From Bacilli bacterium (GTDB lineage: Bacteria > Bacillota_I > Bacilli_A > RF39 > UBA660): a DNA stretch of 64,000 nucleotides. Below are positions 5,901-28,736 of the stretch, in pieces. How positions within the stretch are numbered: position 1 is the stretch's first letter; each line of letters opens with the position of its first letter. The notes under the pieces were generated by a model. That model had not been told where the DNA came from. It saw only the letters and a list, made by a program, of their open reading frames with translations, and did not search any database. The DNA lies in NCBI GenBank assembly GCA_017484125.1, contig JAFUTV010000006.1:1658-65657 (forward strand), in the 5' to 3' direction. The position numbers and the translations under genes are program-made.

Positions 5901-7508
5901 AAATGTAATTCTAGCATAACCATTACCAGCATTACCAGTCATTGTATCTTCTGTTCCATCATGTTTAGGCATCGTAGATGTTCCATCAATCATTTCTGCT
6001 TCTTCAAAAACTTTGCCTGAATAATGAACTTGACATTCACTATTATCATTTCCAGTAGCACATTGTACATCATCTATTTCTTTAGGAGAAATATTATCTT
6101 CAGAAGTAACAGCAACTACTCCAGGATATCCAGAAATAAATGATGAACCTCCTGCGCCATATCCAGTAGCATTAGCATCACTCTTAACACCAGCACCACC
6201 ACCGAAATATCCAGCTCCACCACCAGTTCCAGTAGTTCCAGCATTACCACCAACACCAAATGATCCATTTCCTGCAGAACCATTATTAGTACTTGCTCCG
6301 CCAATTCCACCTGTTGTTTGAGTTCCGCCTGTACCATGGTATGAACCGCTTGTAGCTAGTCCTCTTAAAGCACCACCAGCACTAGATGAAGATCCAGCAC
6401 CACCAGCACCTGCAACCATAATACGAGATGCTAAAGATGCACTATTATTCCACTCAGTTTTAGATGATCCTGTTTTTAAACGAATGTCAGTAGCACCACC
6501 ACCACCATTACCAGTAGTAGATGTTCCACCACCATTCCAACCGCCAGCAGTTGTTGTTGGTTGATTTCCTACATAAACATAAACTTTTTCATCAGCTTCA
6601 AGTCTTAATAAACCTTTAGTATAAGCACCATTACCACCATTTGATCCACCTTGAGCTCCCCAAAGTTCTACTAAATATTTACCATTTTTTGGTGCAGTAA
6701 ATGTTTGATATTCTCCTGTATAAGAATATCCATCAACAAAACTTTGATTTACTCTAAGATAAGAAATTGTGTAAACTTGGTCTTCAGCAATATGAGGTTC
6801 ATGAACAGTTATAGTAATTGTTCCAGATGGTTCAAGCATTAAATCAGCACCAGTAACAGTTACTTCTGCTTCTGGATCAAATACATCAGTAGTAATATTT
6901 AAATATAACTCACTTTCTAAGATATCTAAGCCATAAGTATCAGTAAGAGGATCATATCTTGGATCAAGTGAACTATCATATCCCTCAATTTTTAAAATAC
7001 TTAATTTATTTGAATGTTCATTTGGATGATCTAATGGAGTTCTAACTGCATTAATTGTATATATTCTAGTTTCCCCTGCAGCATTAGTAACAGGAATATT
7101 AACAACTGTTGTTTTACCATATTCAACATAATATTCTTGATTTAATCCAGCAACTGTAGAAGTTTCTTCAAAAATAGAACCAGTAAGAGTAAAGTATTGT
7201 TCATAAGTTCCTAGAGTAAGAGTATAGTTAGTTATTAAAGGATTAAAGACAGGATCTAAAACACCTTTAGTAGATTCTAAAGTTTCTAAACACTTGTCTT
7301 CAATAGTCATTAAATAAAGTCCATCTAAGGCATCGTTAACATTATCTACATCCCAGTTTTCATCAGCTGGTGTATATCCTACATCATAAGCATATGTATC
7401 ATAAGCTTTAACACTATTTGTAAACACACAAAAAGACATTAGTATAATTACTAACATAATTAAAATATTAAATTTATTTTTTAAATTTATTATTCTGTTT
7501 TTCATCAT
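1..7508 (-). CDS. Giant secreted surface protein, C-terminal part beyond the left window edge. Layout: signal peptide, LH-family handle, 2 cadherin-like repeats, glycine-rich domain, then about 21 more cadherin-like beta-sandwich repeats
   Basis: Manual minus-strand translation from ATG 7505/7508 (RBS GAGGAA) stays open to nt 1 (codon starts = 2 mod 3). It begins MMKNRIINLKNKFNILIMLVIILMSFCVFTNSVKA/YDTYAYDVGYTPADENWDVDNVNDALDGLY. The ~80-95 aa repeats look like L(S/T).L.V..G.L.P.FD....Y...V...TY.INV.R. The track lists no ORF in this phase, as expected for an ORF with no in-window stop. Confidence 0.85.
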   Translation of the reverse strand, partial: MMKNRIINLKNKFNILIMLVIILMSFCVFTNSVKAYDTYAYDVGYTPADENWDVDNVNDALDGLYLMTIEDKCLETLESTKGVLDPVFNPLITNYTLTLGTYEQYFTLTGSIFEETSTVAGLNQEYYVEYGKTTVVNIPVTNAAGETRIYTINAVRTPLDHPNEHSNKLSILKIEGYDSSLDPRYDPLTDTYGLDILESELYLNITTDVFDPEAEVTVTGADLMLEPSGTITITVHEPHIAEDQVYTISYLRVNQSFVDGYSYTGEYQTFTAPKNGKYLVELWGAQGGSNGGNGAYTKGLLRLEADEKVYVYVGNQPTTTAGGWNGGGTSTTGNGGGGATDIRLKTGSSKTEWNNSASLASRIMVAGAGGAGSSSSAGGALRGLATSGSYHGTGGTQTTGGIGGASTNNGSAGNGSFGVGGNAGTTGTGGGAGYFGGGAGVKSDANATGYGAGGSSFISGYPGVVAVTSEDNISPKEIDDVQCATGNDNSECQVHYSGKVFEEAEMIDGTSTMPKHDGTEDTMTGNAGNGYARITFVDLNKNNFLESLSTDVGAVDGGTWEEVFDVTTYTYNVTLTDTEEEVKIQARPSSSLATIDGLGTHYIPADVNNDPQGRTIVPVSVTAQSGDVRIYYINFTRQANSNGLPNNITISGLVPSYCAIDESYCNVEPSTFSSDNTTYELTIPYKIREIYFNVEKGHYFQDVSGEGAVSVRPNANLFTITVNSEDKTNSSVYNYRVTRDMTGDNDLSKLKVISPDNISIVFDPEVTEYYFTVGNDYDSYVINNTEEKNTELAENIMQLYYETDDTNATAYLLGDGNLHVGQNTIPIMIVAQNGETQTYTLNVYREPNTNIYLESLAVKSTDGTINYDLIPEFNKINFGTYKVTVDKDVSEVNIIANPESVTTNVSGAGIKTLNKGNNYFDIVTVAESDGYVETYKINIFREKDNNANISSLKVLLDDVNTAYTPEFDADELNYELTAPIGTSEVEFNIELESEFATYQLLDNNKINVGTNLKRILVRAEDNTTKTYNITITRPSDTNNGLSGLRVSNDNQEFILTPAFDSEANDDHFTLTVENEVNWVNVVATPASNLAKVTGNARYSLRVGLNEILVKVKSESGAEKTYQIDITRLPNSNGYLSSIVNSVGTLSPSFDKNEFNYSINVGSDVTSIDINGTPEASTTTVTGNRNYTLVAGENNIVLTTLAEDNTTTLTYNITVTRDKSANANLSDLFIKEGKLSPNFDKNIIEYVVRVPYDVEEVHAVYETENNDATVEVSGNTNLVVGENIVSVKVTAQDESEKTYNIRVIRQEFSEFSTYLSSLTISDGSLEPTFDKTNQFYEVEVPYTTTQMTFNGTSEDENATVEGNGTHDLHTGNNLFTIRVTGQDDKIRDYQILVNRLKNDEARLSNVVIKDKSINFGTDTYTYNVTTKDNSLDFTTITPMDLNATYVVTGNSWTDVGNYTVKIKVTAENGTSTKEYIFNVERQESDNANLSKLEVEGYKLIPEFDSNRTNYSLTTDIPNNITSVNIIAEADDKNATVDGTGVVNLNTGENIINVVVTSEDNTTKTYTINIYRQKSDNNTVNVLEVLNGTMDKVYSEQYSIYNVSVPYEETSLNLNIVLQDLTASYAVSGNSNFQVGPNNTVRVVITSESGKTKTITLNVTREEAISALLTNIEVDDYDILPTFESTTFNYNIIVNNETTELNIHPTMLDRLGTYTIVGNENFNVGSNTVLINTSSRDDEKHETYTLNVVRQAYVNNFLSNLTVSEGSLDPEFNQTTLTYNVSVASDVEKITIDGQVAEATSTVTGLGEKDLETGKNEFVVSVVNLGIRRNYKVIVTRAEANDNYLLSFAAKVNNVAQAISPEFDSKTDSYIINVAPGTKVINFAGTVSEGATVTGLGNRTIILGNNRLEIVVKSLSGKERTYTVNVYRPASSNTTITNIIPSSGTLDPVFDENNSTYTLRVGSNVDKLSFNVNKTDEFATVTGNEELNLAVGTSQRVITITAEDNENTAQYTINVIRDRTDNADLSNLEVIGYEFDEGEYDIEQTPVYNIHVPNSKEVISPSEIIATSSDPNAKITKQGDTSLIGKSQVEYLVTVKSYDGTVTKTYKIIVNREISSDASVTLITPSNGTLDPEFAAATKTYNLRIASNITQLSFTVDTTNKFATVTGNSLEYVAVGTSQREITITSEDGNSTDTYTINVTRDRTDNALLSNLYVEGYDFTDEYDFDENTYTYHVTVPNEKATLTPNDVIATSSDPNAKITKQETVSLSTKQTTDYKVTVKSYDETVTKVYTIVVTREKSNFTQLDSLSANKGRLTPVFTPVTKTYDLYLYENETKVTISATTSDDDIAILSGTGEITLTEDDTENKIVLQAENGDTSYYTVNIHRSIKTDKELADLGLNYDEELEFLPTEFVLSPAFTGSRSTYEIKVPYEYNPLDVAYTTLNDQQTVKVKVDGEEVDNYQLPVGNTMVDIEVYDGLNALTKTYHLNVVKGKSRNTYLSNLEVE
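627..1730 (-). repeat. Tandem duplication of a two-repeat superunit (about 555 bp, 185 codons, x2) within the giant ORF
   Basis: Unit 1182-1730 (..SSGTLDPVFDENNSTYTLRV..QYTINVIRDRTDNADLSNLEV..ATSSDPNAKITKQ..TYKIIVNR) parallels unit 627-1181 (..SNGTLDPEFAAATKTYNLRI..TYTINVTRDRTDNALLSNLYV..ATSSDPNAKITKQ..VYTIVVTR). Local near-identical DNA runs occur, e.g. gcatttggatcacttga at ~745 and ~1305. Confidence 0.7.
5905..6735 (-). other. Glycine-rich domain (ALK/LTK-type, PF12810-like pattern) within the giant ORF
   Basis: Translation: YQTFTAPKNGKYLVELWGAQGGSNGGNGAYTKG..VYVGNQ..GGWNGGGTS..GGGGATDIR..RIMVAGAGGAGS..GGTQTTGG..GGGAGYFGGGAG..GAGGSSFISG..GNAGNGYARITFV. The motif order matches the four Gly-rich array genes. 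Confidence 0.6.
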
Positions 7509-7534
7509 TTCCTCATACTCCTACTATTGAGATA

Positions 7535-7564
7535 ATTATAACATTAAATCAATGAATAAATCTA
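7535..7564 (-). promoter_or_regulatory. Candidate sigma-A type promoter of the giant gene (extended -10 TGtTATAAT, weak -35 TAGATT)
   Basis: The minus strand reads ..gTAGATTtattcattgatttaaTGtTATAATtatctc.., about 25 nt upstream of the RBS/ATG. It lies downstream of the terminator at 7695-7721. Confidence 0.35.
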
Positions 7565-7694
7565 CTCTTTTTGAAATTTTTTTTAATTTTTTTTTAGTAT
7601 TTTTTATAAGTTCCTTAATTATGAGGAAATTTAGTAGTTTTTTTTAAAAAAATATCGTTTTCTTTCCTTATTATATATAACTATATAAAAGGCA

Positions 7695-7721
7695 TAAAAA
7701 AACAAGTATAAAAATACTTGT
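7695..7721 (-). terminator. Rho-independent terminator ending the 28-gene array
   Basis: Minus strand: ACAAGTAT-tttt-ATACTTGT (8-bp stem, 7702-7709/7714-7721) followed by TTTTTTT. It sits 45 nt after the stop of 7766..8572. Confidence 0.65.
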
Positions 7722-7765: not shown

Positions 7766-8572
7766 TTATACACCATAAAATTGAAGGCCACCTATTTCAA
7801 CATAACTTGAAGAATATATATTAACTATAAATACTCTCCAATATTGATATGATTCATCTAATTTAGTATTAAATAAATAAACCGTAGAATTAGTATTAGC
7901 AAGTGTATAATTATCTGATGCATCAACCCATGTGCTATTATCATTACTTGCTTGTAATCTTACTGTTTTAGCTTGATAAGACTGTGGACCACCATTTAAA
8001 AACTTAGTTATTCTAACATTAACATTTGTATTAAATTTATATCCAATATATTGATTAGTTGTTTTACCATTGACATTACACCATGATTCACTTGCTTCAA
8101 TAAAAGCTTTCCATCCAGCCCAATTAGAAGAATATTCAGTACTATATATAACATTTGTATTATTTGATAAAGTTGGAACAAGTGCAGTTTTTAGTGCATT
8201 TAAAAGTGTAACATTAACTTTGTTTCTAAAATAAGTACTATCCATCATTTTTTTAGCTGCCGCTTTATTACTTGATATTTTACTCATAAAATTAGTAGTT
8301 AAGACATCATTTATATCAACTTTATCACCAGTTATATCAAGTATTTTTTTTAACTCTTCATCAGTATAGCCATTATTAATTTTATATAAACTATCTAAGG
8401 CATCACTAACATTTTCTATTGATGAGCCATCTTCTTTTTTCCAAGAATTATCAGTTGGAGTAAATCCAACATCATTTGAAAAAATTGAAAACGCCAAAAC
8501 AGATGTTATAGTAGTTGTTAATATAACACCTAAAATAAAGGTAAAGACTGAATTATTAAATATTTTCTTCAT
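7766..8572 (-). CDS. LH-family member 28 (long handle). Head: linker plus F5/8 type C (discoidin)-like domain
   Basis: N-terminus MKKIFNNSVFTFILGVILTTTITSVLAFSIFSNDVGFTPTDNSWKKEDGSSIENVSDALDSLY. C-terminus ..WKAF..NQYIGYKFNTNVNVRITKF..ASNDNSTWVD..YWRVFI..EIGGLQFYGV. Confidence 0.85.
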   Translation of the reverse strand: MKKIFNNSVFTFILGVILTTTITSVLAFSIFSNDVGFTPTDNSWKKEDGSSIENVSDALDSLYKINNGYTDEELKKILDITGDKVDINDVLTTNFMSKISSNKAAAKKMMDSTYFRNKVNVTLLNALKTALVPTLSNNTNVIYSTEYSSNWAGWKAFIEASESWCNVNGKTTNQYIGYKFNTNVNVRITKFLNGGPQSYQAKTVRLQASNDNSTWVDASDNYTLANTNSTVYLFNTKLDESYQYWRVFIVNIYSSSYVEIGGLQFYGV

Positions 8573-8629: not shown

Positions 8630-9202
8630 TTATTCAAATTTTATATATCTAAGAACATAACTATCAGGATCATATGAATTAGTACCTTTATTATTAGATA
8701 CTAATGTTCCGTCCTCAGCAAATGTACATCTATAAAATACAAAATCTAGTTTTTGATCAAAATATTGGCTAGAATTATATCTACTAGACCCAGAACTTGT
8801 AAATCCTTTTGAATCAATTATTGTACATGTTCCATTTGTTGGTGTTAAATATACTGTACTGTCTCTTGTATTTACATAATTACATGTAGTCATTGCACCT
8901 GAATAAGAATATATTAAAGCTACTAAATATTTACCTTTAGTGGTATTAATACTTACATTATAATTACTTGTTCCATGCGCTTGTCCATAGGTTCCTAAAA
9001 CATTAGTTGAAGATACTTTATATAAAGGATTATCAGATAAAATATGTAAATAATCAATGGCATCACTTACATTATCTACATCCCATGTATTATCACTTGG
9101 AATATACTCTGTATCAGAAGAAAGGAAAGAAAACGCAAAAACAGTACTTATACTTCCAAAAATAAGTGCACCTAAAATAAAGCTAACTATTTTTCTTTTC
9201 AT
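8630..9202 (-). CDS. LH-family member 27. Small beta-rich head (KGKY type), paralog of 9226..9819
   Basis: N-terminus MKRKIVSFILGALIFGSISTVFAFSFLSSDTEYIPSDNTWDVDNVSDAIDYLH. Head ..TKGKYLVALIYSYSG..LTPTNGTCTIID..YDPDSYVLRYIKFE. Confidence 0.85.
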   Translation of the reverse strand: MKRKIVSFILGALIFGSISTVFAFSFLSSDTEYIPSDNTWDVDNVSDAIDYLHILSDNPLYKVSSTNVLGTYGQAHGTSNYNVSINTTKGKYLVALIYSYSGAMTTCNYVNTRDSTVYLTPTNGTCTIIDSKGFTSSGSSRYNSSQYFDQKLDFVFYRCTFAEDGTLVSNNKGTNSYDPDSYVLRYIKFE

Positions 9203-9225: not shown

Positions 9226-9819
9226 TTAATCTTTAAGTCTTATATACCTCATTACATATGTATCTGGATCATAGTTATTTGTTGCATAAGTTGTTGATGT
9301 AACAGAGCCATTTTCTTTAAAATCACATAAGAAAAATCCAAAACGTAATGTATTATTAAAACGATAATTACTAGAATACGCAACTGAATTTCCTCCACTG
9401 CCATAAAAATAAGAATCAATTGTTGTACATGTTCCATTTGTTGGAGTTAAACCTATTCCACCTTGAGATATTGAAGAATAATTATTTGCTTGAATTCCAC
9501 CACCATAAGAATAATATAGCATTACAAAGTATTTTCCTCTAGTAAAATTAGCTGATAAACTATTACTACTTGAAGCATGTGCTTGCTTATATGTTCCTTG
9601 AACATCATTACTATCTAAAGCCATAAATTTTTCTATTCCTATTTCATGAATAGATTCAAGAGCATCATAAACATTATCAACTTACCATTTATTATCTTTT
9701 GGAGTAAAGCCAATATTTGAAGCTATAAGTGAGTATGCAAAAACTGGTGTTATAAAGCTAAAAATAATAGCACCTAAGATAAAATAAAAGATATCTGAAT
9801 TTATTATTTTTTTTATCAT
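9226..9819 (-). pseudogene. LH-family member 26 interrupted by a single in-frame TAA at codon 46 (9682-9684). The head ORF 9226..9624 is still intact
   Basis: Manual translation from ATG 9819: MIKKIINSDIFYFILGAIIFSFITPVFAYSLIASNIGFTPKDNKW*VDNVYDALESIHEIGIEKFMALDSNDVQGTYKQAH.. It is in frame with the track ORF 9226..9624 (195 nt = 65 codons apart). Confidence 0.8.
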
Positions 9820-9847: not shown

Positions 9848-10690
9848 CTATCTAAAATTAGTTTTTGAAACAGTTATTACTGGTCTTAGACCATATATTG
9901 AACTATTGTTACAATTATTAACTAAGCCACCTCTTGAAATACACCAATACTCTGAATATCCAAAAATAAAATCATTTGTCCAATAACCATTTTGTTTTGC
10001 TGAGTTTGAATCAAGTTCTGTTGTTGGATCACAACCAAATGGACTACAATCACTCAAATAGTTAAACAACCATCGATATGGCTTAACAGCAGCTTTACCA
10101 GCTTCTGAAGCATAAGTCCAGTTTCCTTGAGCACATGAAGATTGATCTTTTAATCCCATACAAAACCATCCTGTATTTGCTTTATCTTCATATTTCCATG
10201 TTGGATAATCAACAGCATTAACTATTTGTTGTATATCAGGCATTTTTATAACTTGTACATATTTCCAATTTAAAGCAGAACCGGCTCCAGATTCAAAATA
10301 ATGTTTCGCATTTTTCCATGATATATTAGATTCAGTAATATTTCTTTCCATTATCAAATCCACTGAATTATCCCTTACTTCTAAAACATAAAAATTTCTT
10401 TTGATGTTATCTCCTGGATCACATTCATATTTTGTTCCTACACTAAAGTGATCACTTTCATCACCATATTCACTGTCTACATACCTACATATTTTCTTTA
10501 AAGCAATTGAATTTGTTCTATCATATAAATCATCTAGTGCTTCGGATACGTTTTCTACTTCCCAACTCGAATCTTTTGGAGTAAAACCTACATTACTCGA
10601 AACAATAGAGTATGCTAAAACTGACACTGCACTAAATATTACAGTACCTATGATAAATGTAAAAAGTGGATTTTTAAATATCTTTTTCAT
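9848..10690 (-). CDS. LH-family member 25. Cys-containing DUF6273-like head
   Basis: Leader MKKIFKNPLFTFIIGTVIFSAVSVLAYSIVSSNVGFTPKDSSWEVENVSEALDDLY. Head GTKYECDPGDNIKRNFYVLEVRDNSVDLIMERNI..GYWTND..YGLRPVITVSKTNF. Confidence 0.85.
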   Translation of the reverse strand: MKKIFKNPLFTFIIGTVIFSAVSVLAYSIVSSNVGFTPKDSSWEVENVSEALDDLYDRTNSIALKKICRYVDSEYGDESDHFSVGTKYECDPGDNIKRNFYVLEVRDNSVDLIMERNITESNISWKNAKHYFESGAGSALNWKYVQVIKMPDIQQIVNAVDYPTWKYEDKANTGWFCMGLKDQSSCAQGNWTYASEAGKAAVKPYRWLFNYLSDCSPFGCDPTTELDSNSAKQNGYWTNDFIFGYSEYWCISRGGLVNNCNNSSIYGLRPVITVSKTNFR

Positions 10691-10720: not shown

Positions 10721-11161
10721 TTATTTTCCATATGCAATCCAGTTAATAGTATCTGAATGTAAAACACTAAAGAATGAATTATACCCAATATCAAATGAAG
10801 TAGTTGTTATATTTGTTACATAAACAGATCCGCCAGATGTTCCAGCATTATACTCATACCTTATTTTAGGAATTTCCATAAATGGCTTTTCAAAGGTAAT
10901 TGTTATATATTTCCATGAATGAGTAAATGATATATTAATGCTACCAACTTCAACATGATTACCAATCTTATCTTCAATCATTTGATATTCACCTTTTAAA
11001 TAATCAAGAGCATCACTAACATTATCTACATTCCAATTACTAGCTTTTGGAGTAAAACCTACATTACTAGCTATAATTGAGTATGCAAAAACTGACACTG
11101 TACTAAATATTACAGCACCTAAGATAAAGTAAAATATTTTTATTTTTAATATTTTATCCAT
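10721..11161 (-). CDS. LH-family member 24. Small head, possibly H-type-lectin-like
   Basis: Leader MDKILKIKIFYFILGAVIFSTVSVFAYSIIASNVGFTPKASNWNVDNVSDALDYL. Head ..ITITFEKPFMEIPKIRYEY..VYVTNITTTSFDIGY..INWIAYGK. The lectin call is pattern memory only. Confidence 0.8.
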   Translation of the reverse strand: MDKILKIKIFYFILGAVIFSTVSVFAYSIIASNVGFTPKASNWNVDNVSDALDYLKGEYQMIEDKIGNHVEVGSINISFTHSWKYITITFEKPFMEIPKIRYEYNAGTSGGSVYVTNITTTSFDIGYNSFFSVLHSDTINWIAYGK

Positions 11162-11186
11162 TTTGCATACTCCTTTCTATTATTTA

Positions 11187-12134
11187 TTAAGCATCTACTC
11201 CATAAAATTGAACAGTTACTACATTTACATAACCACTTGATGTAGATGATATTATGTATATTCTCCATTGACTTCCTACATATATATCATTTAAAAAAAT
11301 TGTGTTTGTTCCACTATTTGAGGTATTAGATGCAGTTAGTGTTGTTGTTGCATCTTTCCAACTACCATCATAATATTGAATTTTAAATGTTTTAATATTT
11401 TCACTTAATGTTGGATTCATCCAATATACTTTATAAACAGAAATATTTTTATTAAAATTATAACCTATATAATTACCATTTACACTATTAGCAGGTGATG
11501 CAAATCTTGTGGAATTATTTCCATCAAATGCTCTATATCCACTATAAGTTGCATCATATCTACTTCCATAAACTACATTAGTATCACTTGATAGTGTTGG
11601 AACCTTAGTAGACTTTTTATCAAGTAAAGTAAGTGCTTCACTATCATTTATTATAGTATTTCTATTATCTTTATTTAATAAAATTCTTTGTCTTAAACTA
11701 CTTGATTTAAATATTTGATTATTGTAATTATCATCTTTAAATACTTCTAGTAAAGAAGAGTTTTGTATTCTATTATCTAAAGAATTAAAATACACTTTAC
11801 AATAATCATTTATACCAGTTGTATAAATATTCCAAGCATCTATATTAAAACCACTAGTATTTTCTTCACAATTAATATTAGTAAATAAGTTTTCATTACT
11901 AGGTATTTCTCTTACTTTTGCTCCATCTAAATATAAATAGTATTGTAGATTATTTTTCTTACTTCTTAAATCATCAAGTGCATCCTTAACATTATCTACT
12001 TCCCAATGAGTATCAAGTGGAGTAAAACCTACATCATTTGCTATTAAAGAATATGCAAAAACTGATGTAATACCTACTGCACTTACAAAACCTAATATAA
12101 AGATAAATATTTTTGATTTAAATAGTTTTTGCAC
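11187..12134 (-). CDS. LH-family member 23. Head: discoidin (F5/8 type C)-like domain. GTG start
   Basis: Leader (GTG)QKLFKSKIFIFILGFVSAVGITSVFAYSLIANDVGFTPLDTHWEVDNVKDALDDL. C-terminus ..YRAFDGNNSTRFASP..GNYIGYNFNKNISVYKVYW..YYDGSWKD..QWRIYI..VVTVQFYGVDA. Confidence 0.85.
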   Translation of the reverse strand: MQKLFKSKIFIFILGFVSAVGITSVFAYSLIANDVGFTPLDTHWEVDNVKDALDDLRSKKNNLQYYLYLDGAKVREIPSNENLFTNINCEENTSGFNIDAWNIYTTGINDYCKVYFNSLDNRIQNSSLLEVFKDDNYNNQIFKSSSLRQRILLNKDNRNTIINDSEALTLLDKKSTKVPTLSSDTNVVYGSRYDATYSGYRAFDGNNSTRFASPANSVNGNYIGYNFNKNISVYKVYWMNPTLSENIKTFKIQYYDGSWKDATTTLTASNTSNSGTNTIFLNDIYVGSQWRIYIISSTSSGYVNVVTVQFYGVDA

Positions 12135-12160: not shown

Positions 12161-13033
12161 TTAATTATCCATTATTACTCCTGTTGGTTGAAATTGAACA
12201 TTACCATATGTTTCATTATCACTAGATTTAGCAGATACATAAAAGTTGGTATATACTTTTTCATTACTACTTACATCAACTGTTGTATTAACTATTGTTG
12301 CTGATCCAACCTTTACTCCACGTCCGGCTGAAAAACTTTTTATTAATTCCCAACTATTATTTGTATATCCATAAACATATACATATACAGTTGAAGCATA
12401 TATTGCACTACTATTACCAAATGCTCCATATATGTAAAACTTCTTTAACTGTAAATTACAATTACCATAAGTTAATAATGTTGTTGTATTATTAGTTCTA
12501 AGAACATATGGATATGATCCATTAGAGGCAGAGTAATTTTTATTTTCTAATGTAGATGTAGTTTTTAAACTTTGTGATTTACTTCTTAAATATTTATTGT
12601 AAATATCATATGCCATTACATAAACATTGTATTTTTTATTAGAGGTTAATCCAGAAATAGTTAGTTCATTACTTGTTGACATATTTAAATAAATATTTTG
12701 TTCATCATCTATAGCAAATGCATGATAGCCAAATATTTTATTATTATCAGTTGCTTCAACTGTTGGTATTACTTTAATACTATCATTTGTTAATACTGAT
12801 GTAAAAGAGACATTAGTTATAATATCACTTCTTGTTTTTGATTTGGCATATAATTCATTTATAGCTGTTTCTACTTCTTGAATATCATCACCTTCATCTG
12901 TTTTCCATGTAGTGTCTACTGGAGTAAAACCAACATCACTAGCTATAAAAGAGAATGCAAATACTGATGTAGCACTTGCTACAATTAAACCTAAAATAAA
13001 TATAAATAATCTTGATTTAATTAATCTTTTCAT
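12161..13033 (-). CDS. LH-family member 22 (long handle). Head: FN3-like domain plus an extra beta domain
   Basis: Leader MKRLIKSRLFIFILGLIVASATSVFAFSFIASDVGFTPVDTTWKTDEGDDIQEVETAINELY. Head ..ELTISGLTSNKKYNVYVMAYD... Confidence 0.85.
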   Translation of the reverse strand: MKRLIKSRLFIFILGLIVASATSVFAFSFIASDVGFTPVDTTWKTDEGDDIQEVETAINELYAKSKTRSDIITNVSFTSVLTNDSIKVIPTVEATDNNKIFGYHAFAIDDEQNIYLNMSTSNELTISGLTSNKKYNVYVMAYDIYNKYLRSKSQSLKTTSTLENKNYSASNGSYPYVLRTNNTTTLLTYGNCNLQLKKFYIYGAFGNSSAIYASTVYVYVYGYTNNSWELIKSFSAGRGVKVGSATIVNTTVDVSSNEKVYTNFYVSAKSSDNETYGNVQFQPTGVIMDN

Positions 13034-13552: not shown

Positions 13553-13588
13553 TTTGCATACTCCTTTCATTTTTTATTAATATTTCTA

Positions 13589-17912: not shown

Positions 17913-17932
17913 ATAATTCATTCCTTTCTTTT

Positions 17933-18988: not shown

Positions 18989-19026
18989 ATAATTCATTCC
19001 TTTCTATTATTTTTTTTGTTTATTAA

Positions 19027-21802: not shown

Positions 21803-22369
21803 TTAATGATATATAAATATTCCTATGTTTTGTGGCAATGTGTTATATGGCGGATAATCTGGTCCAACATAAGTTAATGTATCACTTTCACTATTTATTT
21901 TTATTTCATATAGTGAGTAGTAAAAATAATTAGATTGATATCCTGATGAAGAAGAGGTAGCACTTACATCAAAGTATTTAGCAGTCTTTCTTTTAATTGA
22001 ACAGCTATTACATGTTAAACTTGTATCACTATCATAATCTTTTATTACTGTAGTGTGTCTAGAAGATGGCATTGCAGAAACTGCATCTATTGTAATTACA
22101 ACGTACCTTCCTTTAGATAATTCTTTAGTCAATGTTCTATTTCTACCTCTATTACCTTGGAAAGATACAATTTCTAAATTATCAAATCTAGCAATATCAT
22201 CTCTTAATTCATCTAATGCATTACTAACATTATCAACATCCCAATCATCGTCTTTTGGATTATAGCCAACATCTTGAGCTAGTAATGAGTATGCAAAAAC
22301 TGATACTGTTGAAAATATTACAGCACCTAATATAAAAGTAAATATTGGATTTTTTACTAGTTTTTTCAT
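21803..22369 (-). CDS. LH-family member 8. Small head (KGRY type)
   Basis: Leader MKKLVKNPIFTFILGAVIFSTVSVFAYSLLAQDVGYNPKDDDWDVDNVSNALDEL. Head ..LSKGRYVVITIDAVSA..IGIFIYH. Confidence 0.85.
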   Translation of the reverse strand: MKKLVKNPIFTFILGAVIFSTVSVFAYSLLAQDVGYNPKDDDWDVDNVSNALDELRDDIARFDNLEIVSFQGNRGRNRTLTKELSKGRYVVITIDAVSAMPSSRHTTVIKDYDSDTSLTCNSCSIKRKTAKYFDVSATSSSSGYQSNYFYYSLYEIKINSESDTLTYVGPDYPPYNTLPQNIGIFIYH

Positions 22370-22404: not shown

Positions 22405-23478
22405 TTATGGAGCAACTATTGAATAATTAGTTTCATTGTCATAAATAATACTGTTTGGTTTTATACTTACAATTGGGTTAAAGTTTACATTTCCATCTTT
22501 GTCAGCATAACACCATGTTTTATTACCATTTAAAATCATTACCCAACCATTTCCATAACTACCAGGACTTGAAAACCAGAATTTTGTATTAGATAAACCA
22601 AATGTATTATCAATTCCAGTCCATGCATTATATGTATAACCAGTAGAATTAAATTGACTATAATTAATGCTTGATCCAGTTTTTAAGTTATATCCAGAGA
22701 AGAACAAATCGATTGTTGGACCTGCTGCTGCAAAGTCACATATATCACTTTTACAATAACTTGAGTAATTTGATGGAGTTAACATACTCCAAGTTTTGGA
22801 TGCACCATTAGCATTTCCATTTGAACTACTATATTGTTTAGCCCAAGCTAACAAATTGTTTCCAGAAGACTTATTTAAAACACTATTTGCATACGTGCCA
22901 TTAGCTGTTGGCTTGCCACTCCATCTAGCAGTTTTACTAATCAAATACATATGAACACCATCAGTTGCAAATTTATTGCCAATAAATAGTATTATCCAAT
23001 TACTATCGCCATTATAATTTACCGTTTTTCCAAGGAAACTCTTATAATCAGATGAAGCAATTTTAGATATTTGTTGTCCATATATCCATTTAGCAAATAA
23101 TACTTTATCATCAGTGGTATCTAAATTATCAACCGTTACTTTAGTGGTATAAGTATCATCGGTATACCAACCAGCAAATACATAATCTTCTTTAGTAGCA
23201 GTTGGTAAACTCCATAGTTTTTCACCCTTAGCCACTTTTATTAAAGATGTTCCTGATGTTCCACCGTTTGTAATAAAACGTATTGTTGAAAATGATGCAT
23301 TTAAGTCGTACAAGTTATCCAATGCTTCTTTTGTATTTTCTACTTCCCAAGAATCATCTTTTGGAGTGTATCCTACATTTTGTGCAATTATAGAGTATGC
23401 AAAAGCAGATGTCATACCCACAAATATAATGGCACCAAGTATAAAGAATAATAATTTTGATTTAAATATCTTTTTCAT
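22405..23478 (-). CDS. LH-family member 7. Head: Listeria-Bacteroides (Flg_new) repeat plus DUF6273-like domain
   Basis: Leader MKKIFKSKLLFFILGAIIFVGMTSAFAYSIIAQNVGYTPKDDSWEVENTKEALDNLY. Then TIRFITNGGTSGTSLIKVAKGEKLWSLPTATKEDYVFAGWYTDDTY..VLFAKW. C-terminus ..FWFSSPGSYGNGWVMILNGN..NPIVSIKPN. Confidence 0.85.
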   Translation of the reverse strand: MKKIFKSKLLFFILGAIIFVGMTSAFAYSIIAQNVGYTPKDDSWEVENTKEALDNLYDLNASFSTIRFITNGGTSGTSLIKVAKGEKLWSLPTATKEDYVFAGWYTDDTYTTKVTVDNLDTTDDKVLFAKWIYGQQISKIASSDYKSFLGKTVNYNGDSNWIILFIGNKFATDGVHMYLISKTARWSGKPTANGTYANSVLNKSSGNNLLAWAKQYSSSNGNANGASKTWSMLTPSNYSSYCKSDICDFAAAGPTIDLFFSGYNLKTGSSINYSQFNSTGYTYNAWTGIDNTFGLSNTKFWFSSPGSYGNGWVMILNGNKTWCYADKDGNVNFNPIVSIKPNSIIYDNETNYSIVAP

Positions 23479-23506: not shown

Positions 23507-24091
23507 TTAATCTTGTTTTAGTTTAATTGCATTCAATGTAATTCCTAAGGCAATATTATTATCAGTACCGCCTGTATATTTAAGTGTTATTGCTACATTG
23601 TCTTCATTTACTTCAGCATAGTAAATAAAATTTTGAAATCTAGTTATTGAATACATATTGTTAAATTTATTTGATGCTCGCGCTCTGTAGTGTTTTTTTG
23701 ATATATCTTTTATATCACATTTACTGGTATCATAGTTTAAAACAAGTGAACTATCAATTGTATATACTCCAGAACTTTCAGTTGTAGTATTATATCCATA
23801 ATTTGAAGTAGCTAATATAATGTATTTACCTTTATTTAAAGTAATCGATGTATTTTTAGCAGTTAGTTGCCCTAAATTTTGATTTGATATAGGCTCATCA
23901 AACGTTCCCATTTCCCATATACTATTATGTAAATTATCAAGTGCACTAGAAACATTATCAACATTCCAGTTTGTATCACTCGGAATATAGCCAACATCAT
24001 TTGCAAACAAGTCGTATGCAAATGCACTGCTACTAGCAATAGTTATACCTAAAATAAATGTAAATATTGGATTTTTAAATATTTTCTTCAT
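23507..24091 (-). CDS. LH-family member 6. Small head (KGKY type)
   Basis: The track start MQM.. is the conserved UTR ATGCAA. The likely start is ATG 24091. Leader MKKIFKNPIFTFILGITIASSSAFAYDLFANDVGYIPSDTNWNVDNVSSALDNLH. Head ..LNKGKYIILATSNYGY... Confidence 0.85.
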   Translation of the reverse strand: MKKIFKNPIFTFILGITIASSSAFAYDLFANDVGYIPSDTNWNVDNVSSALDNLHNSIWEMGTFDEPISNQNLGQLTAKNTSITLNKGKYIILATSNYGYNTTTESSGVYTIDSSLVLNYDTSKCDIKDISKKHYRARASNKFNNMYSITRFQNFIYYAEVNEDNVAITLKYTGGTDNNIALGITLNAIKLKQD

Positions 24092-24110
24092 TTGCATACT
24101 CCTTTCTTTT

Positions 24111-24938
24111 TTATTCTGGTGTCACATACACCTCAGTAATATAGTCATATGTATCCCAGTTTGCTATATGTATTTGACCAGTATAGTTATTAAGTGTAAA
24201 TTTATCTAAATATGCTCCCGTTGTTCTATTAGAACTTGCAATATTATTTACACTAATATATGGTACATTTGTTCCACTAATTGATGTTTTATAGTATTTA
24301 ACATAAATACTTTTATATTTTGATACATCAATACTATTTACGGTTATCATTCTTGATTTTGAACATCCAGCAGCTGAATTATATAAAAGTATATTTGTTG
24401 AATTTTTTTGAAATAATCCTCTTCTAGGGGTACATCCTTCATCTACTATTTCTACATTCCATCCTCCTGTTATTATCTCATATTCATTCCCATCATTATA
24501 TAACCATATTCTATTTAAAGTTGTTAAATCTGTTTCTGAAGTTTTGACTAATTTATCATTCGAATCATAAGCATTTACTTTAATTTTATATGTCGTATTT
24601 AGATTTAAATTAGTAAACGTATATGTATCACTTGTTGAATTTTCTTTGAATACATTATCTATGTAATAAGTATACTTTGAAGATATTTGTTTTACATAAT
24701 CTGGTATTTTTACTTTTATATATGTTCCATTTAATTCAAGAGCTTCAACATTAAATGAATTAATTCTATTATGCAAATCATCTATAGCATCTTTTGTATT
24801 ATCTACTTTCCAATTACTATCTCTTGGTGTAAATCCTACATCATCAGCTATAAGTGAGTATGCAAAAACTGATGTAGTGCTTACTACAATTAAACCTAAA
24901 ATAAATACAAATATTCTTGATTTAATTAGTTTTTGCAT
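24111..24938 (-). CDS. LH-family member 5. Head: FN3-like domain plus 'TGGW' beta domain (related to member 1)
   Basis: Leader MQKLIKSRIFVFILGLIVVSTTSVFAYSLIADDVGFTPRDSNWKVDNTKDAIDDLH. Then ..TFTNLNLNTTYKIKVNAYD.., then IWLYNDGNEYEIITGGW... Confidence 0.85.
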   Translation of the reverse strand: MQKLIKSRIFVFILGLIVVSTTSVFAYSLIADDVGFTPRDSNWKVDNTKDAIDDLHNRINSFNVEALELNGTYIKVKIPDYVKQISSKYTYYIDNVFKENSTSDTYTFTNLNLNTTYKIKVNAYDSNDKLVKTSETDLTTLNRIWLYNDGNEYEIITGGWNVEIVDEGCTPRRGLFQKNSTNILLYNSAAGCSKSRMITVNSIDVSKYKSIYVKYYKTSISGTNVPYISVNNIASSNRTTGAYLDKFTLNNYTGQIHIANWDTYDYITEVYVTPE

Positions 24939-24958: not shown

Positions 24959-26038
24959 TTACTTGACTACTTCTAAAGTTATTCTTGCGTAACCATTTCC
25001 TATTTTAGCTTTATCTGATTGTGGTTTATTTTCTACATCATCAGTTGTAATTGTTTTTGTTGAATCATCATCAGATGTTGTACATTTATAACATGTTGTA
25101 TGTTTAGTCAATAAATTTGTCGAAATCAATCTTGAACTTGCAATATAACTTGAACCACCGCCAGCACCAGAGTGTCTTGATGATCCACCACCGTAGTAGC
25201 CTCCACCGCCACCTGGTTCATTATTTCCATAGCAAGCTCCACCGGCTGCACCTTGGCCAAATGATCCTGAATTACAAGAACCAGTTTGACCAGCACCACC
25301 AGAGTCCTGAGTACCACCATGACCTACACTTGTTGTCCAGTTATTATGAAATCCATCATGTCCTATATAACCACCACCATGGCCACCAGAACCACTCGGA
25401 GTTGTGCCATTAGAACCATCAGAATAGTGAATACTACCACCACCTCCACCGGCAACGATTAAAATATCACCTTTTCTATCAACTAATGATGATAAAACGC
25501 CAGATGAGAAAGCAATGTGAGTGGCACCACCTCCACCGGCACCCCATCCGCCATATCCTTGTGAAGTATATCCAGTACCTTTACCACCACCATTGTAACC
25601 AGCATTACCTGAAGAATCACCTTGGCCACCAACGTTGATAAATAATATATCGCCTTCATTTAATTTAACATAACCAGTAGCAAAACCACCATAACCACCA
25701 CTAAAACTTGAAGAAGCGTTTCCTCCTTGTGCTCCCCATACTTCTAATTTATATATTCCAGATAATGGAACTGGGAAATTTTGTTCTTCTCCTTCATATG
25801 GATAATTCCAAACAAGTCCTTCAAATCTTGTTTTACAATAAGTACAAGTTTCGTGTAATTCATCTAGTGCTTCACCAGTATCATTAATATCAGTTCCATC
25901 AGATTTTTTCCAAGAACTATCTGATGGTGTAAAGCCTACATCACTAGCAATTAAGGAGTATGCAAAAGCTGATGTAGTACTAGCTACAATTAAACCTAAG
26001 ATAAATACAAATATTCTTGATTTAAATAGTTTTTGCAT
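24959..26038 (-). CDS. LH-family member 4 (long handle). Head: C.YC motif plus glycine-rich (PF12810-like) domain
   Basis: Sequence MQKLFKSRIFVFILGLIVASTTSAFAYSLIASDVGFTPSDSSWKKSDGTDINDTGEALDELHETCTYCK..SGIYKLEVWGAQGG..GGGGATHIA..LIVAGGGGGS..GGGGGYYGGGSS..KIGNGYARITL. Confidence 0.85.
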   Translation of the reverse strand: MQKLFKSRIFVFILGLIVASTTSAFAYSLIASDVGFTPSDSSWKKSDGTDINDTGEALDELHETCTYCKTRFEGLVWNYPYEGEEQNFPVPLSGIYKLEVWGAQGGNASSSFSGGYGGFATGYVKLNEGDILFINVGGQGDSSGNAGYNGGGKGTGYTSQGYGGWGAGGGGATHIAFSSGVLSSLVDRKGDILIVAGGGGGSIHYSDGSNGTTPSGSGGHGGGYIGHDGFHNNWTTSVGHGGTQDSGGAGQTGSCNSGSFGQGAAGGACYGNNEPGGGGGYYGGGSSRHSGAGGGSSYIASSRLISTNLLTKHTTCYKCTTSDDDSTKTITTDDVENKPQSDKAKIGNGYARITLEVVK

Positions 26039-26063: not shown

Positions 26064-26906
26064 TTAATATAGATTTGTTTTAAATACTGTAATAGTAGGT
26101 CTAACTCCCATATATTTGTTTGTTGTTATTTCCAAATTAGACAATGAACCACTTGAATGAATTCGCCATGCATATTGTGAAGATGTACTAGTATTAATAT
26201 AATCTGAAGTCCAATATCCGTATGCTTCATCAGATGTTAACTCATTTGGACAATGATATTCTTGATCAAAATACAAATAATCATGAAGCCAACAATAATC
26301 AGTATCTTTTTTACATCTTGCACCTGATACATTATCATAGACTTTACTTTTTAAACAAAATATATCATTAACAGTCGCAGTTGTTGCTTTCCAATTAGTT
26401 TTTCCAACAGCTAAAGCAATATCATTTGCTTTTGGTAAGTCTACATCTATTACATTATTCCATAATACTTTTATATTATTGTCATCTATATATGATTTAG
26501 CATCCATCCAAGTCATTACCTTTTTTGATGTTTTTTCAGTTAAATTATGTTGCATTATTAATTTAATAACTTCACCATTAACATTTAATATGTAAAAATT
26601 TCTTAATATTCCATCACCTGGGTCACATTCATATTGTGTTCCAACAGCATATAAATCAGATTTATCTTGAGAATAATCATTATTAGCATAAGTACAAACT
26701 CTTCTAAATGCCATTGAATTAATTTTATTATGTAAATCATCTAGTGCTTCTTTAGTATTTTCTACTTCCCAAGAATTATCTTTTGGAGTAAATCCAACAT
26801 CATTTGCAATTATTGAATATGAGATAGCAAAAACTGATGTAATTCCAATTACACTTGTAACACCTAATATAAATACAAATAATTTTGATTTAAACAGTTT
26901 TTGCAT
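26064..26906 (-). CDS. LH-family member 3. Cys-containing DUF6273-like head
   Basis: Leader MQKLFKSKLFVFILGVTSVIGITSVFAISYSIIANDVGFTPKDNSWEVENTKEALDDLH. Head GTQYECDPGDGILRNFYILNVNGEVIKLIMQHNL..GYWTSD..MGVRPTITVFKTNL. Confidence 0.85.
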   Translation of the reverse strand: MQKLFKSKLFVFILGVTSVIGITSVFAISYSIIANDVGFTPKDNSWEVENTKEALDDLHNKINSMAFRRVCTYANNDYSQDKSDLYAVGTQYECDPGDGILRNFYILNVNGEVIKLIMQHNLTEKTSKKVMTWMDAKSYIDDNNIKVLWNNVIDVDLPKANDIALAVGKTNWKATTATVNDIFCLKSKVYDNVSGARCKKDTDYCWLHDYLYFDQEYHCPNELTSDEAYGYWTSDYINTSTSSQYAWRIHSSGSLSNLEITTNKYMGVRPTITVFKTNLY

Positions 26907-26929: not shown

Positions 26930-28015
26930 TTAATTTGCAATTAATAGTGTTATTTTGGCATATCCATGACCACTTTTTGCATAGTCACTTATTGGATCAT
27001 CCGAAACATTTGTTGTTGATATTGTTTTGGTGCCTTCTTCATCTGAAGTTGTACAATTATAACATGCCATATGTTTAGTAACTGATAATGCTGATTCTAA
27101 GTTTTCTGAAGCTATATAGCCTGATCCTCCAGCTCCACCATGTCGTCCACCGCTTGCTCCACCAAAGTATCCACCGCCACCACCTGGCATTCTAACGTTA
27201 ATTGCTCCACCGCCTTTGCCAAATGATCCACTTTGTGAGTTGTAGCACTGACTACCACCACATGTAGTCATGTAATTTCCTCCAGCTTCTTGAGTACCAC
27301 CAGTTGCTGATCCAATTGGATAAGTATAATTAGACACATTTTTAACTGTGGCTTTTTCTCCTTGTTTTCCTCCACCAGCACCACCAACTCCATAGTAGTC
27401 TGACGAAAATTTAACTGCACCTCCGCCACCACCGGCAACAATTAAAATACTATTCTTGTCATTTTCAAGTGAAGAAAGTAATCCAGATGATGTTGCAATA
27501 TGTGTTGCACCTCCACCAGCGCCAACATATACATCAGCATCATTAATTGACCTTGCAGAACCTCCGCCATTATATCCTCCAGCAATTACAGTATCACTGT
27601 GATATATACTTGTTCCTTGTCCGCCGACATTGATATAAAGAGTATCGTTATTACTTAATCTAACTATTCCAGTTGAATATCCACCATAACCACCAGCATA
27701 AGAATTAGTTGCGTCCCCTCCTTGTGCTCCCCAGGCTTCTAATTTGTAGATTCCTGAAATTGGAACAGGAAATTCTTGTTCTTTTCCTTCATATGGAATT
27801 TTCCAAACCAATCCTTCAAAACGACTCTTGCAATAATCACATGTTTCATGTAAATCATCTAAACCACTCTTAACATTATCCACATTCCAATCCTCATCTT
27901 TTGGAGTAAATCCTACATCTTGAGCTAGTAATGAGTATGCAAAAACTGATACTGTTGAAAACATTACAGCACCTAATACGAAGAAAAATATTCTTGATTT
28001 AAATAGTTTTTTCAT
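26930..28015 (-). CDS. LH-family member 2. Head: C.YC motif plus glycine-rich (PF12810-like) domain
   Basis: Sequence MKKLFKSRIFFFVLGAVMFSTVSVFAYSLLAQDVGFTPKDEDWNVDNVKSGLDDLHETCDYCK..SGIYKLEAWGAQGG..AGGGATHIA..LIVAGGGGGA..GGGGGYFGGASG..KSGHGYAKITLL. Confidence 0.85.
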   Translation of the reverse strand: MKKLFKSRIFFFVLGAVMFSTVSVFAYSLLAQDVGFTPKDEDWNVDNVKSGLDDLHETCDYCKSRFEGLVWKIPYEGKEQEFPVPISGIYKLEAWGAQGGDATNSYAGGYGGYSTGIVRLSNNDTLYINVGGQGTSIYHSDTVIAGGYNGGGSARSINDADVYVGAGGGATHIATSSGLLSSLENDKNSILIVAGGGGGAVKFSSDYYGVGGAGGGKQGEKATVKNVSNYTYPIGSATGGTQEAGGNYMTTCGGSQCYNSQSGSFGKGGGAINVRMPGGGGGYFGGASGGRHGGAGGSGYIASENLESALSVTKHMACYNCTTSDEEGTKTISTTNVSDDPISDYAKSGHGYAKITLLIAN

Positions 28016-28052
28016 ATTTGCATACTCACCTCCTTATTTGTGAATTATTTAT

Positions 28053-28736
28053 TTAATTTGCAGGTCCTTTATTTTTTGATAAATAAACACCATATATTCT
28101 TAAAGTAGTTACCGAATCACTTGATATACCTCTCATTGTTGTAAATGAAATATACCCTGGATCACTACATGTAAGCGGATAAGATACAATAAGCATGTTG
28201 CTACCTACTAAATTGTAGCCGTATATTCTTTCACTTCCATTAATTACATATGTTGGATTTGTTTTACTTTCAACTGCTACCTGAGCCCAGTAAATGTTTG
28301 ATGCATAGTAGAGTATATTTATATATTCATAATTTGTACAATCTATTTTGTTATTGGTATTAGCTACAACATACTGGTAGGTACTATTTATTGAAACATC
28401 CATATGATCAGAATTAAATACTGCACTCTTTTTATTTATTCCTGTGTTATTGCCTCCACCCCAAATTCCATAATTCATTGATGAAGACCAGCCACCTGTT
28501 ACAGCATCAAATGTATTTCCTTTCCAATACAGGAATAATTTTTTTTCTTGTGCATTAAATTCATCTCGCAAATCATCTAGTGCTTCTTTTGTATTATCTA
28601 CTTCCCAAGTAGTGTCTTTTGGAGTAAAACCTACATCTTGTGCTAAAAGTGAGTATGCAAATACTGAAGAAATACCACTAACTATAACTATGCCTAGTAT
28701 CAAAAATAAAAATCTTGATTTAAATAATTTTTTCAT
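28053..28736 (-). CDS. LH-family member 1 (first cistron). Head: 'TGGW' beta-rich domain
   Basis: Leader MKKLFKSRFLFLILGIVIVSGISSVFAYSLLAQDVGFTPKDTTWEVDNTKEALDDL. Head LFLYWKGNTFDAVTGGWSSS.. parallels IWLYNDGNEYEIITGGW of 24111..24938. RBS AAGGAAGGTG. Confidence 0.85.
   Translation of the reverse strand: MKKLFKSRFLFLILGIVIVSGISSVFAYSLLAQDVGFTPKDTTWEVDNTKEALDDLRDEFNAQEKKLFLYWKGNTFDAVTGGWSSSMNYGIWGGGNNTGINKKSAVFNSDHMDVSINSTYQYVVANTNNKIDCTNYEYINILYYASNIYWAQVAVESKTNPTYVINGSERIYGYNLVGSNMLIVSYPLTCSDPGYISFTTMRGISSDSVTTLRIYGVYLSKNKGPAN

Follow-up and report, generated by a model that had tools for sequence, protein, structure and literature searches.

A short protein segment that recurs through a tandem gene array in an uncultured, low-GC member of the Bacilli probably represents a phage tail-fibre repeat module, in a copy that belongs to the cell and is attached to a leader, and likely acts as an oligomerisation or junction neck, not as a signal of the SipW/TasA kind. 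The segment, called the handle here, was studied in a stretch of 64,000 nucleotides (GenBank assembly GCA_017484125.1, contig JAFUTV010000006.1, positions 1,658 to 65,657 of the forward strand; hereafter the window). On the minus strand of the window, between 7766 and 28736, the list of open reading frames (ORFs) and their translations give 28 genes, all in the same direction, and the translations show each to be built of a leader, a handle and a variable head. Genes are referred to below by their lower coordinate.

The array products open with a K-rich n-region and an uncharged stretch of about 19 residues containing a conserved F-I-L-G, after which come S-V-F-A and then Y-S-x-x-A-x-[DN] (more broadly, the junction reads V-x-A and then Y[ST]..A.[DN]). 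The core of the handle is V-G-[FY]-T-P-x-D-x-x-W-x-V-[DE]-N-[VT]-x-x-A-[LI]-D-x-L, and an unrelated head comes next. Within the window, handles are carried by 27 intact array genes, one array gene broken by a TAA codon, and a giant gene that flanks the array on one side, mutM and polA flanking it on the other. There were no phage genes in the window around the array, no C-terminal anchor on any array head in the translations, and no lipobox cysteine in the array leaders. When a hidden Markov model (HMM) of the handle was run against all six-frame ORFs of the genome, each array copy was found with an E value between 1e-12 and 1e-23; the recurrence of the handle in the array is far beyond chance. 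By HMM and genome search the genome (1.18 Mb, 33 contigs) holds 43 handles, counting the TAA-interrupted gene, with 14 copies outside the array set of the window.

The junction between leader and handle was compared in 175 family members, in which the uncharged stretch averaged 19 residues and the n-region about 8. Counting back from the core V, there was an A at -8 in 170 members (the -1 position of the junction, A in 97%) and V, A or I at -10 in 168; the sequence then continued with Y in 159 and with S or T in 154. From its residues, V-x-A/Y-[ST] reads as an ordinary site of the type-I signal-peptidase kind, with putative cleavage 8 residues upstream of the core module. If the leader were cut there, the mature proteins would begin YSLLAQDVGFTPK, leaving the handle N-terminal.

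The handle and the phage fibre module

The original prediction had pointed to a resemblance between the handle and a motif near the N-termini of phage tail fibres. The resemblance was borne out by a profile-profile match above shuffled controls, by bridging sequences and by the occurrence of the same phage head domains; the restriction to N-termini did not hold, because the motif also takes internal and C-terminal positions. The phage consensus is A..V.YDN..SGL.ATNVQDAIDEL and that of the handle A.DVGFTP.D..W.V.NV..ALDDL, a module of about 27 residues. When an alignment of handles was compared with one of the phage motif using hhalign, the match had a probability of 95.7% and an E value of 9e-9, over 26 gapless columns in one register. 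A second run, in which 134 handle sequences were aligned to 85 phage motifs, gave a score of 30.0, compared with 7.1 +/- 1.75 (maximum 13.3) for 200 column shuffles and 7.4 for a reversed alignment. The hhalign result was unchanged when the bridging proteins P0005 and P0068 were omitted.

The positions in common are an aromatic residue at 3, a hydrophobic residue at 10, and then [DN]-V-x-x-A-[LI]-D-[DE]-[LIV]. The two forms share their length and register over 26-27 residues, and both precede glycine-rich or DUF6273 heads. They differ in that the phage motif has DN..SGL where the handle has TP.D..W, and in that phage fibre proteins often carry tandem copies, whereas there is one handle per protein. 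Unlike the phage motif, the handle sits behind a Sec-type leader in chromosomal genes that have no phage around them. A pattern scan of IMG/VR for the phage motif found 85 loci with 102 distinct instances; an ORF often had 2-5 copies, which could lie at either terminus or internally.

Several proteins bridge the two forms. P0005 (478 amino acids, no leader) has three internal W-type handle copies, including QVGFTPTDTTWAVTDVAGALDDL and NPHEVKGSQVGFTPTDTTWAVTDVAGALDDLK; it matches tail PHROGs and is encoded just upstream of a holin on a 34.9-kb phage-like contig. Its relatives in IMG/VR carry the classical motif, for example AVSYDNTGSGLTATNVQDAIDEV, in similar fibre-type proteins, several of them after a similar histidine-containing stretch, and in classical motifs of this type the stretch between V and the last hydrophobic residue is exactly as long as in the handle. 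P0295, like P0005, has W-type copies inside a phage fibre, P0302 has a bridging copy (ITYNPTGTTLVSTNVQLAINEL), and P0344 has classical copies in a related protein in a different flanking context. P0217 is a glycine-rich protein with the classical motif VYYDNNESNLSSTTVQDAIDEIY behind a signal peptide, and P0191, P0192, P0221 and P0222 are leader-bearing glycine-rich proteins with shortened hairpins. Hairpin lengths in metagenomic glycine-rich leader proteins are graded, from VTYKDKTVEKALNELY, which lacks a hairpin, to a long WKK.NG form, with the classical phage form in between (P0217, P0191/P0192, P0221/P0222). Homology of the handle with the phage fibre repeat module is well supported.

The motif alone has no Pfam family and no PHROG model of its own, being embedded in phrog_2137, and a tblastn search of annotated phages with the repeat region of P0005 found nothing. 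No paper quoting the motif strings was found in open-access texts, nor did the open-access literature hold anything relevant on tandem arrays of signal-peptide glycine-rich fibre proteins. Annotated phages with the motif include Clostridioides difficile phages, in their tail fibre proteins, and Faecalibacterium phages. In phiCDHM11 gp20 (PF12571; phrog_2137, "tail fiber protein") it lies at the C-terminal end with coiled coils nearby, and gp21, the product of the following gene, begins with a glycine-rich domain. In gp68 of the Faecalibacterium phage FP_Taranis, annotated as a target of a diversity-generating retroelement, the motif occupies about residues 19-44 of a protein with Ig-like repeats and a DUF6273 head.

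The array heads themselves were identified by Pfam as glycine-rich (PF12810; genes 17933, 20672, 24959 and 26930, with the giant gene in addition), discoidin (three genes), fn3, H-type lectin, Flg_new and, in one array member, DUF6273. The glycine-rich head is of the ALK/LTK type, the model of gene 26930 matching phage glycine-rich proteins (3e-17) and the glycine-rich domain of ALK/LTK (1.5e-9). A second tandem set, outside the window on contig C27 (10192-15806), comprises seven handle genes with phage tail-collar heads, for which 739 phage records were matched; the handle of its member at 10925-11689 is degenerate. A prepilin-type gene (C27:9428-9850) lies directly downstream of this set.

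Outside this genome, the handle was present in 3 of the 151 genomes of the order, the other two having 2-3 copies each. A search of metagenomes with the handle profile, which the original prediction had called for, recovered 1045 clusters at E <= 1e-3 among 1.84 billion representative proteins. Any two of these clusters share less than 50% identity. Inspection covered the best 150 of the 1045, and in 146 of them the handle was at about residues 23-58, right behind the leader. A search with a sub-alignment of six handle sequences found close relatives in one named genome, a rumen metagenome-assembled genome (MAG; "Bacilli bacterium Tb.RUG.233") in which arrays occur as well; with the same sub-alignment no relative was found in viral contigs. 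A word-indexed homologue search with the handle alone returned 3 proteins only, a method too insensitive for this purpose.

The module also occurs in pilin-like proteins. In several Clostridia MAGs (loci L018-L023) it lies 1-4 residues from the C-terminus of such proteins (...ADMVAFTPEDPNWKVENVKEALDYLYNN, then the stop). Four of the six ORFs have a prepilin-type N-terminus and two are fragments; when the prepilin motif PF07963 was tested, it was found on one (the L023 ORF, 23.1 bits). One of these Clostridia carriers has 828 amino acids and fn3-like repeats, and P0068, also pilin-like, has two tandem C-terminal copies of the module. PF07963 was not among the Pfam matches of the 27 array proteins. 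Glycine-rich heads of the array type are found elsewhere behind prepilin N-termini (P0226, P0244 and others), behind TasA-like "..YA.F" leaders, or without a leader. Since the module is found after leaders, inside phage fibres and at the C-termini of pilins, it is portable and self-contained, with an exchangeable export or anchor device.

Possible roles of the handle

From its residue pattern, the handle would be expected to fold into a hairpin or short strand (V.F..../W.V) leading into an amphipathic helix (NV..ALDDL). If it is an oligomerisation or junction neck, an assembly, probably trimeric, would be initiated or capped by it and every exported head would have a common connector, and the array genes together would supply a set of binding proteins, surface-bound or secreted, that can be exchanged for one another. 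Their heads are of the kinds that phages use as receptor-binding tips, i.e., glycine-rich, discoidin, H-type lectin and DUF6273.

Several features point to a neck. The handle is conserved across contexts that gene conversion cannot reach; its hydrophobic residues (V, F, W, V, V, A, L and L within 24 residues) are too dense for a spacer; the phage motif is repeated within fibre-type proteins and occurs beside coiled coils, as in phiCDHM11 gp20; and the small array proteins have no other retaining or assembling element apart from the leader. Several of the head classes are, moreover, trimeric where studied, i.e., the C. difficile prophage protein PtsM discussed below, the collar of T4 gp12 and the H-type lectins. 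That the handle is an assembly or docking element rather than a spacer, as the original prediction had proposed, is plausible and fits the portability of the module.

Other observations weigh against the proposal of a phage-derived neck. Handle peptides searched against Pfam and PHROG by sequence-to-profile comparison gave nothing better than E 0.06, and the handle HMM scored the classical phage motif at 7.2 bits only, so that HMMER alone misses the link; because plain searches fail in this way, homology rests on profile-profile comparison and intermediates over about 27 residues. Sequence searches of the PDB with profiles of the handle and of the phage motif, and with phiCDHM11 gp20, gave no meaningful match. 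In an AlphaFold2 monomer of the gene 26930 protein, with a mean predicted local distance difference test score (pLDDT) of 87 and above 90 in the head, residues 3-30 form a helix that runs from the leader into YSLLA, residues 31-47 are coil (pLDDT 51-73) and residues 48-58 are again helical; the handle is of low confidence and does not pack on the head. A model of P0005 (mean pLDDT 54) was too poor to judge how its copies pack, and drew only the three module helices, the third continuing as a long helix ahead of the C-terminal domain. As far as such models can indicate, a handle poorly defined in the monomer would fit folding in the oligomer only and a flexible linker equally well. The proposal that collar heads are always accompanied by the motif was dropped, since two phage collar proteins whose tblastn matches appeared to extend into the handle proved, on inspection, to have no clear motif before the collar. 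Finally, the seven C27 paralogs have conserved cytoplasmic tails of 25-50 residues ahead of the hydrophobic segment, an arrangement more in keeping with a membrane anchor that stays uncleaved than with a signal peptide.

The neck proposal can be extended, tentatively, to a plug that associates with itself or with its relatives. In this possible but doubtful version, three copies of the handle or of the classical phage form would zip into a small knot, and handle-head proteins would mount interchangeably on scaffolds that display the module, giving a phage-derived, combinatorial adhesin tip. The scaffold would here be the distal N-terminus of the giant fibre (at least 3059 amino acids) and, in Clostridia, pili whose subunits end in the module; hairpin length, short or long, could determine which of two compatibility classes a handle belongs to.

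The tails of the C27 paralogs, and similar ones on contig C26, raise the alternative that the hydrophobic segment stays in the membrane as an uncleaved type-II anchor, with the handle only setting the distance or orientation of the head at the surface and possibly clustering anchors laterally. The uncharged stretch together with Y-S-hydrophobic-hydrophobic-A spans about 25 residues, enough for a transmembrane helix and in keeping with the helix drawn by AlphaFold2 at 3-30, and a C-terminal anchor is lacking from all heads. We nevertheless regard this as unlikely, since the near-invariant V-x-A at -3/-1, present even in the unrelated leader of the giant gene (VKA/YD), fits a peptidase site, and since the module is also found far from membranes, in phage fibres and at pilin C-termini. 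The alternative also overlaps with the neck proposal, an anchored neck being still a neck.

In cellular proteins the module is strictly terminal, either after the leader, as in 146 of the top 150 clusters, or 1-4 residues from a pilin C-terminus, and highly variable cargo follows an invariant element whose leader is itself unusually conserved (F-I-L-G). These features would suit a sorting or processing tag, i.e., a terminal recognition signal comparable to LPXTG, PEP-CTERM or the C-terminal domain of the type IX secretion system (T9SS), read by a putative machine that anchors, modifies or hands over the cargo. We think such a tag quite unlikely. The three internal repeats in the signal-less P0005, and up to five internal classical copies per phage ORF, are unlike a sorting tag, and no conserved candidate enzyme gene lies beside the arrays in the window, on C27 or at the Tb.RUG.233 loci.

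A passive spacer, functionless and kept alike by gene conversion of the 5' ends, with the shared DNA acting as a recombination substrate that shuffles heads, is very unlikely. The low AlphaFold2 confidence at the handle would suit it, as would the likeness of leaders to those of their neighbours rather than to those with the same head class (24959 and 24111; 17933 and 17085). However, the same residues are kept in 1045 metagenomic clusters, in Clostridia pilins, in phage fibres and at other positions in proteins, where local gene conversion is impossible. In both of those pairs, moreover, the near-identical leaders are followed by handles of different length, so the handle is not simply swept along.

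The original prediction had also likened the junction to SipW-type cleavage sites. On this account VFA/YS would be a SipW-cognate site and the handle, as the new N-terminus, a donor strand polymerising TasA-like fibres, a reading that is largely refuted and to which we give scarcely any credence. The SipW-cognate signals of TasA and camelysin (TIGR04088) do, like the array leaders, end in small-x-A and then an aromatic residue, and the junction is superficially like TFA/YFSD. However, TIGR04088, which the prediction had named as a test, matched none of the 27 intact array proteins at E <= 1; gene 26930 was retested, again without a match. A six-frame scan of the whole genome with TIGR04088 at E <= 10 gave five weak matches, none in the array; the same genome search cleared the membership cut-off of 19 bits in 2 of 14 control genomes. 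One weak match, below threshold at 13.9-15.2 bits, is to a TasA-like gene that is not one of the handle genes (...GTTFAFFTAS) and lies on contig C20, close to one of the two SipW-type peptidase genes.

A look for sipW-like peptidase genes elsewhere in the genome, another check that the prediction had named, found two (archaeal/SipW type, TIGR02228, 93 and 91 bits; C20:11685-12065 and C23:763-1266), but neither contig carries a handle gene and there is no sipW linkage to the array. The C20 gene sits among TasA-like genes and WXG/LXG-like genes. Its SipW-type domain ends an ORF of 382 amino acids (C20:11679-12824) with a long, multi-hydrophobic N-terminal part, and the C23 copy is within an ORF of 347 amino acids (C23:316-1356). 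A LepB-type peptidase was not found in this assembly, which is 88.9% complete, nor in 3 of 30 relatives. The absence may be an assembly gap, given that 27 of the 31 genomes of the family have LepB, and the statement that the genome relies only on SipW-type peptidases was discarded as unsafe for the same reason. SipW-type genes were likewise found in 27 of the 31 family genomes and are thus common, whereas the handle, with its 3 of 151 genomes of the order, is rare, i.e., the two do not co-occur.

Nor are the heads of TasA or camelysin fold; no such domain was found behind the handle, the Pfam heads being PF12810, F5_F8_type_C, fn3, H_lectin, Flg_new and DUF6273, that is, glycine-rich, discoidin, lectin or, on C27, collar folds. 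A separate class of genes does have TasA-like "..YA.F" leaders (C20:4121-4867 and window 34671-36257). The protein of 528 amino acids encoded at 34671-36257 has the leader ..GISYA/YVMFTATQ and a Flg_new repeat, and on reading its sequence the C-terminal part resembles the DUF6273-type heads of the array. A pseudopilin-like gene with weak ComGC/GspG matches (34253-34621) adjoins it, and the partial gene at 62714-64000 looks to be of the same kind as 34671-36257.

Parallels with known fibre and surface proteins

By analogy, the architecture of the array resembles a fusion of the terminal few residues of a phage fibre with the receptor-binding protein next in line, preceded by an export signal. 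One phage parallel is the PtsL-PtsM pair of a C. difficile prophage and of diffocin. PtsM, with its glycine-rich N-terminal domain, behaves as a homotrimer; with PtsL, the baseplate-attachment protein, it makes a stable complex (PMC9615553). Its glycine-rich domain belongs to the same Pfam family, PF12810, as the array heads, and in phiCDHM11 it is gp20, in the place of PtsL, that has the motif at its end, with gp21 starting with a glycine-rich domain. The difference is that these are separate proteins, whereas the array fuses motif and glycine-rich domain in one exported polypeptide. Because PtsL binding maps to the C-terminus of PtsM and not to the glycine-rich domain (PMC9615553), any role of the motif in the PtsL-PtsM complex would be putative.

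Judged by architecture, the closest functional analogue of the array is the mosaic adhesive trimer (MAT) family of Bdellovibrio bacteriovorus, whose members have a signal peptide, a shared N-terminal domain and diverse phage-like trimeric surface tips (Caulton et al. 2024, PMC10769870). The shared element of MAT proteins is beta-rich and of about 130 amino acids; the long trimeric shafts behind it are of beta-helix or coiled type, and an S74 chaperone-protease is often present (PMC10769870). As in MAT, the array is a cell-owned, multigene, phage-like family with a signal peptide, one N-terminal element and variable binding tips, although the match is one of architecture only. The shared element of the array is five times smaller (about 27-35 amino acids), most members are shaftless, and Peptidase_S74 was not among the Pfam matches of the array proteins. 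The array family is also larger relative to its genome, whose 1.18 Mb carry 43 members, with 28 in a single tandem array.

Comparison can also be made with the Vlp, Vsp and Vsa proteins of Mycoplasma, which, like the array, form large tandem families in small genomes, with a conserved N-terminal export region and a variable, exposed remainder. The array differs in having no lipobox cysteine and no obvious switchable promoter for each gene, the gaps holding a ribosome-binding site only, and in having folded, phage-type binding domains rather than repeats as its variable parts.

These findings suggest that an uncultured, small-genome bacterium of gut or rumen displays about 43 interchangeable, phage-style heads through one connector. 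If so, a very small, portable connector would be common to phage tail fibres, exported bacterial proteins and pilin-like proteins, and a bacterium with a 1.2-Mb genome would spend roughly 4% of its genes on phage-style heads, a counterpart in a Gram-positive lineage of the MAT fibres of Bdellovibrio. The motif could serve in searches for receptor-binding proteins of phages and, in metagenomes, for "domesticated" fibre proteins; if it is a self-assembling neck, it would also make a compact tag for building oligomeric binders.

Short and long handles in the window

The handle had been described as occurring in two length variants, which was correct, and as differing by an insertion of 4 residues, which was not; in a MAFFT alignment the insertion is of 6, between W and [VI] (W-KKSDGT-DI in the long form, W-EV in the short). 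The long form was confirmed in exactly the eight array genes named (7766, 12161, 13052, 13589, 14696, 15246, 17933 and 24959), although the pattern given for it was slightly too strict, gene 13589 having F for W and gene 15246 WQ rather than WK. For the short form, a count of 20 array genes and the giant gene stands with 19 intact genes and the giant gene, the handle of the twentieth (ATG at 9819) being cut by a TAA. As had also been stated, both forms occur on several head classes, namely on glycine-rich and discoidin heads as classified by BLAST clustering and Pfam. Glycine-rich heads follow long handles in 17933 and 24959 and short ones in 20672, 26930 and the giant gene; discoidin heads follow a long handle in 7766 and short ones in 11187 and 17085; and the long form is also found on five head types that occur once each.

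By sequence, the two forms appear to differ in the hairpin only, the long form adding a conserved 6-residue turn with the consensus KK.[ND]G. within the array. Among the best 150 of the 1045 metagenomic cluster representatives, 119 were short and 27 long, the consensus of the insert being KK[SAQ][ND]G[ESD]. Because the insert keeps its own conserved sequence, the short and long forms are seen as old, discrete variants of the hairpin turn.

The positions that follow are all on the minus strand and were read from the MAFFT alignment of the window handles unless another basis is given. Long handles lie at 8381-8503 (gene 7766-8572, discoidin head), 12845-12967 (gene 12161-13033), 13364-13486 (gene 13052-13570), 13910-14032 (gene 13589-14098, with F replacing W), 15035-15157 (gene 14696-15226) and 15549-15671 (gene 15246-15737), and, in the two genes with glycine-rich PF12810 heads, at 18797-18919 (gene 17933-18997) and 25850-25972 (gene 24959-26038).

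The first gene of the array, 28053-28736, has its short handle at 28563-28667, and the gene whose protein was modelled with AlphaFold2 (26930-28015, glycine-rich head) at 27845-27949. Further along the array, short handles are found at 26727-26831 (gene 26064-26906), 24768-24872 (gene 24111-24938), 23924-24028 (gene 23507-24097), 23305-23409 (gene 22405-23478), 22199-22303 (gene 21803-22369), 21587-21691 (gene 20672-21760, glycine-rich head), 20475-20579 (gene 20142-20648), 19937-20041 (gene 19604-20110) and 19414-19518 (gene 19027-19587). They continue at 17739-17843 (gene 17085-17921, discoidin head), 16887-16991 (gene 16584-17057), 16380-16484 (gene 15756-16550), 14505-14609 (gene 14133-14678), 11961-12065 (gene 11187-12134, discoidin head), 10991-11095 (gene 10721-11161), 10520-10624 (gene 9848-10690, whose head is one of three in one BLAST class) and 9041-9145 (gene 8630-9202).

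The interrupted short handle occupies 9643-9747, as judged by reading the sequence and by the genome search, in which one TAA fell inside the match. Its gene begins with the ATG at 9819; the in-frame TAA (9682-9684) comes directly after the W of the handle, and the frame runs unshifted into the head ORF at 9226-9624. The TAA probably reflects either an error in sequencing or a gene that became a pseudogene recently. The giant gene (3-7508 in the window, its product having at least 3059 amino acids on its contig) encodes, in order, a leader unrelated to those of the array, a short handle (7311-7415), a glycine-rich domain and a long repeat stalk. Its handle scored 57.6 bits with the handle HMM (ORF C6:1-9177), and despite the unrelated leader its junction is the VKA/YD already mentioned.

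Successive array genes are separated by 11-57 bp, with a ribosome-binding site of the AGAAAGGA type in every gap. In the alignment, genes 24959 (long handle) and 24111 (short), like 17933 (long) and 17085 (short), have near-identical leaders; since neighbours of this kind differ in handle length, leader, hairpin length and head form a mosaic. Between 12161 and 26038 the leaders fall into subtypes (FILGLIVASTTS.., FILGAVIFSTVS.. and FILGV.S.IGITS..) that track gene neighbourhood and not head class or handle length, which suggests that the 5' ends of array genes undergo gene conversion locally.

Elsewhere in the window, two further genes were noted by eye. One, at 46041-48092, encodes an ATP-binding cassette (ABC) exporter with what looks to be a C39 peptidase domain of the bacteriocin type at its N-terminus. 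The other, at 36336-36647, encodes a Cys/His-rich protein of 103 amino acids that resembles spore-coat proteins of the CotD-like kind.

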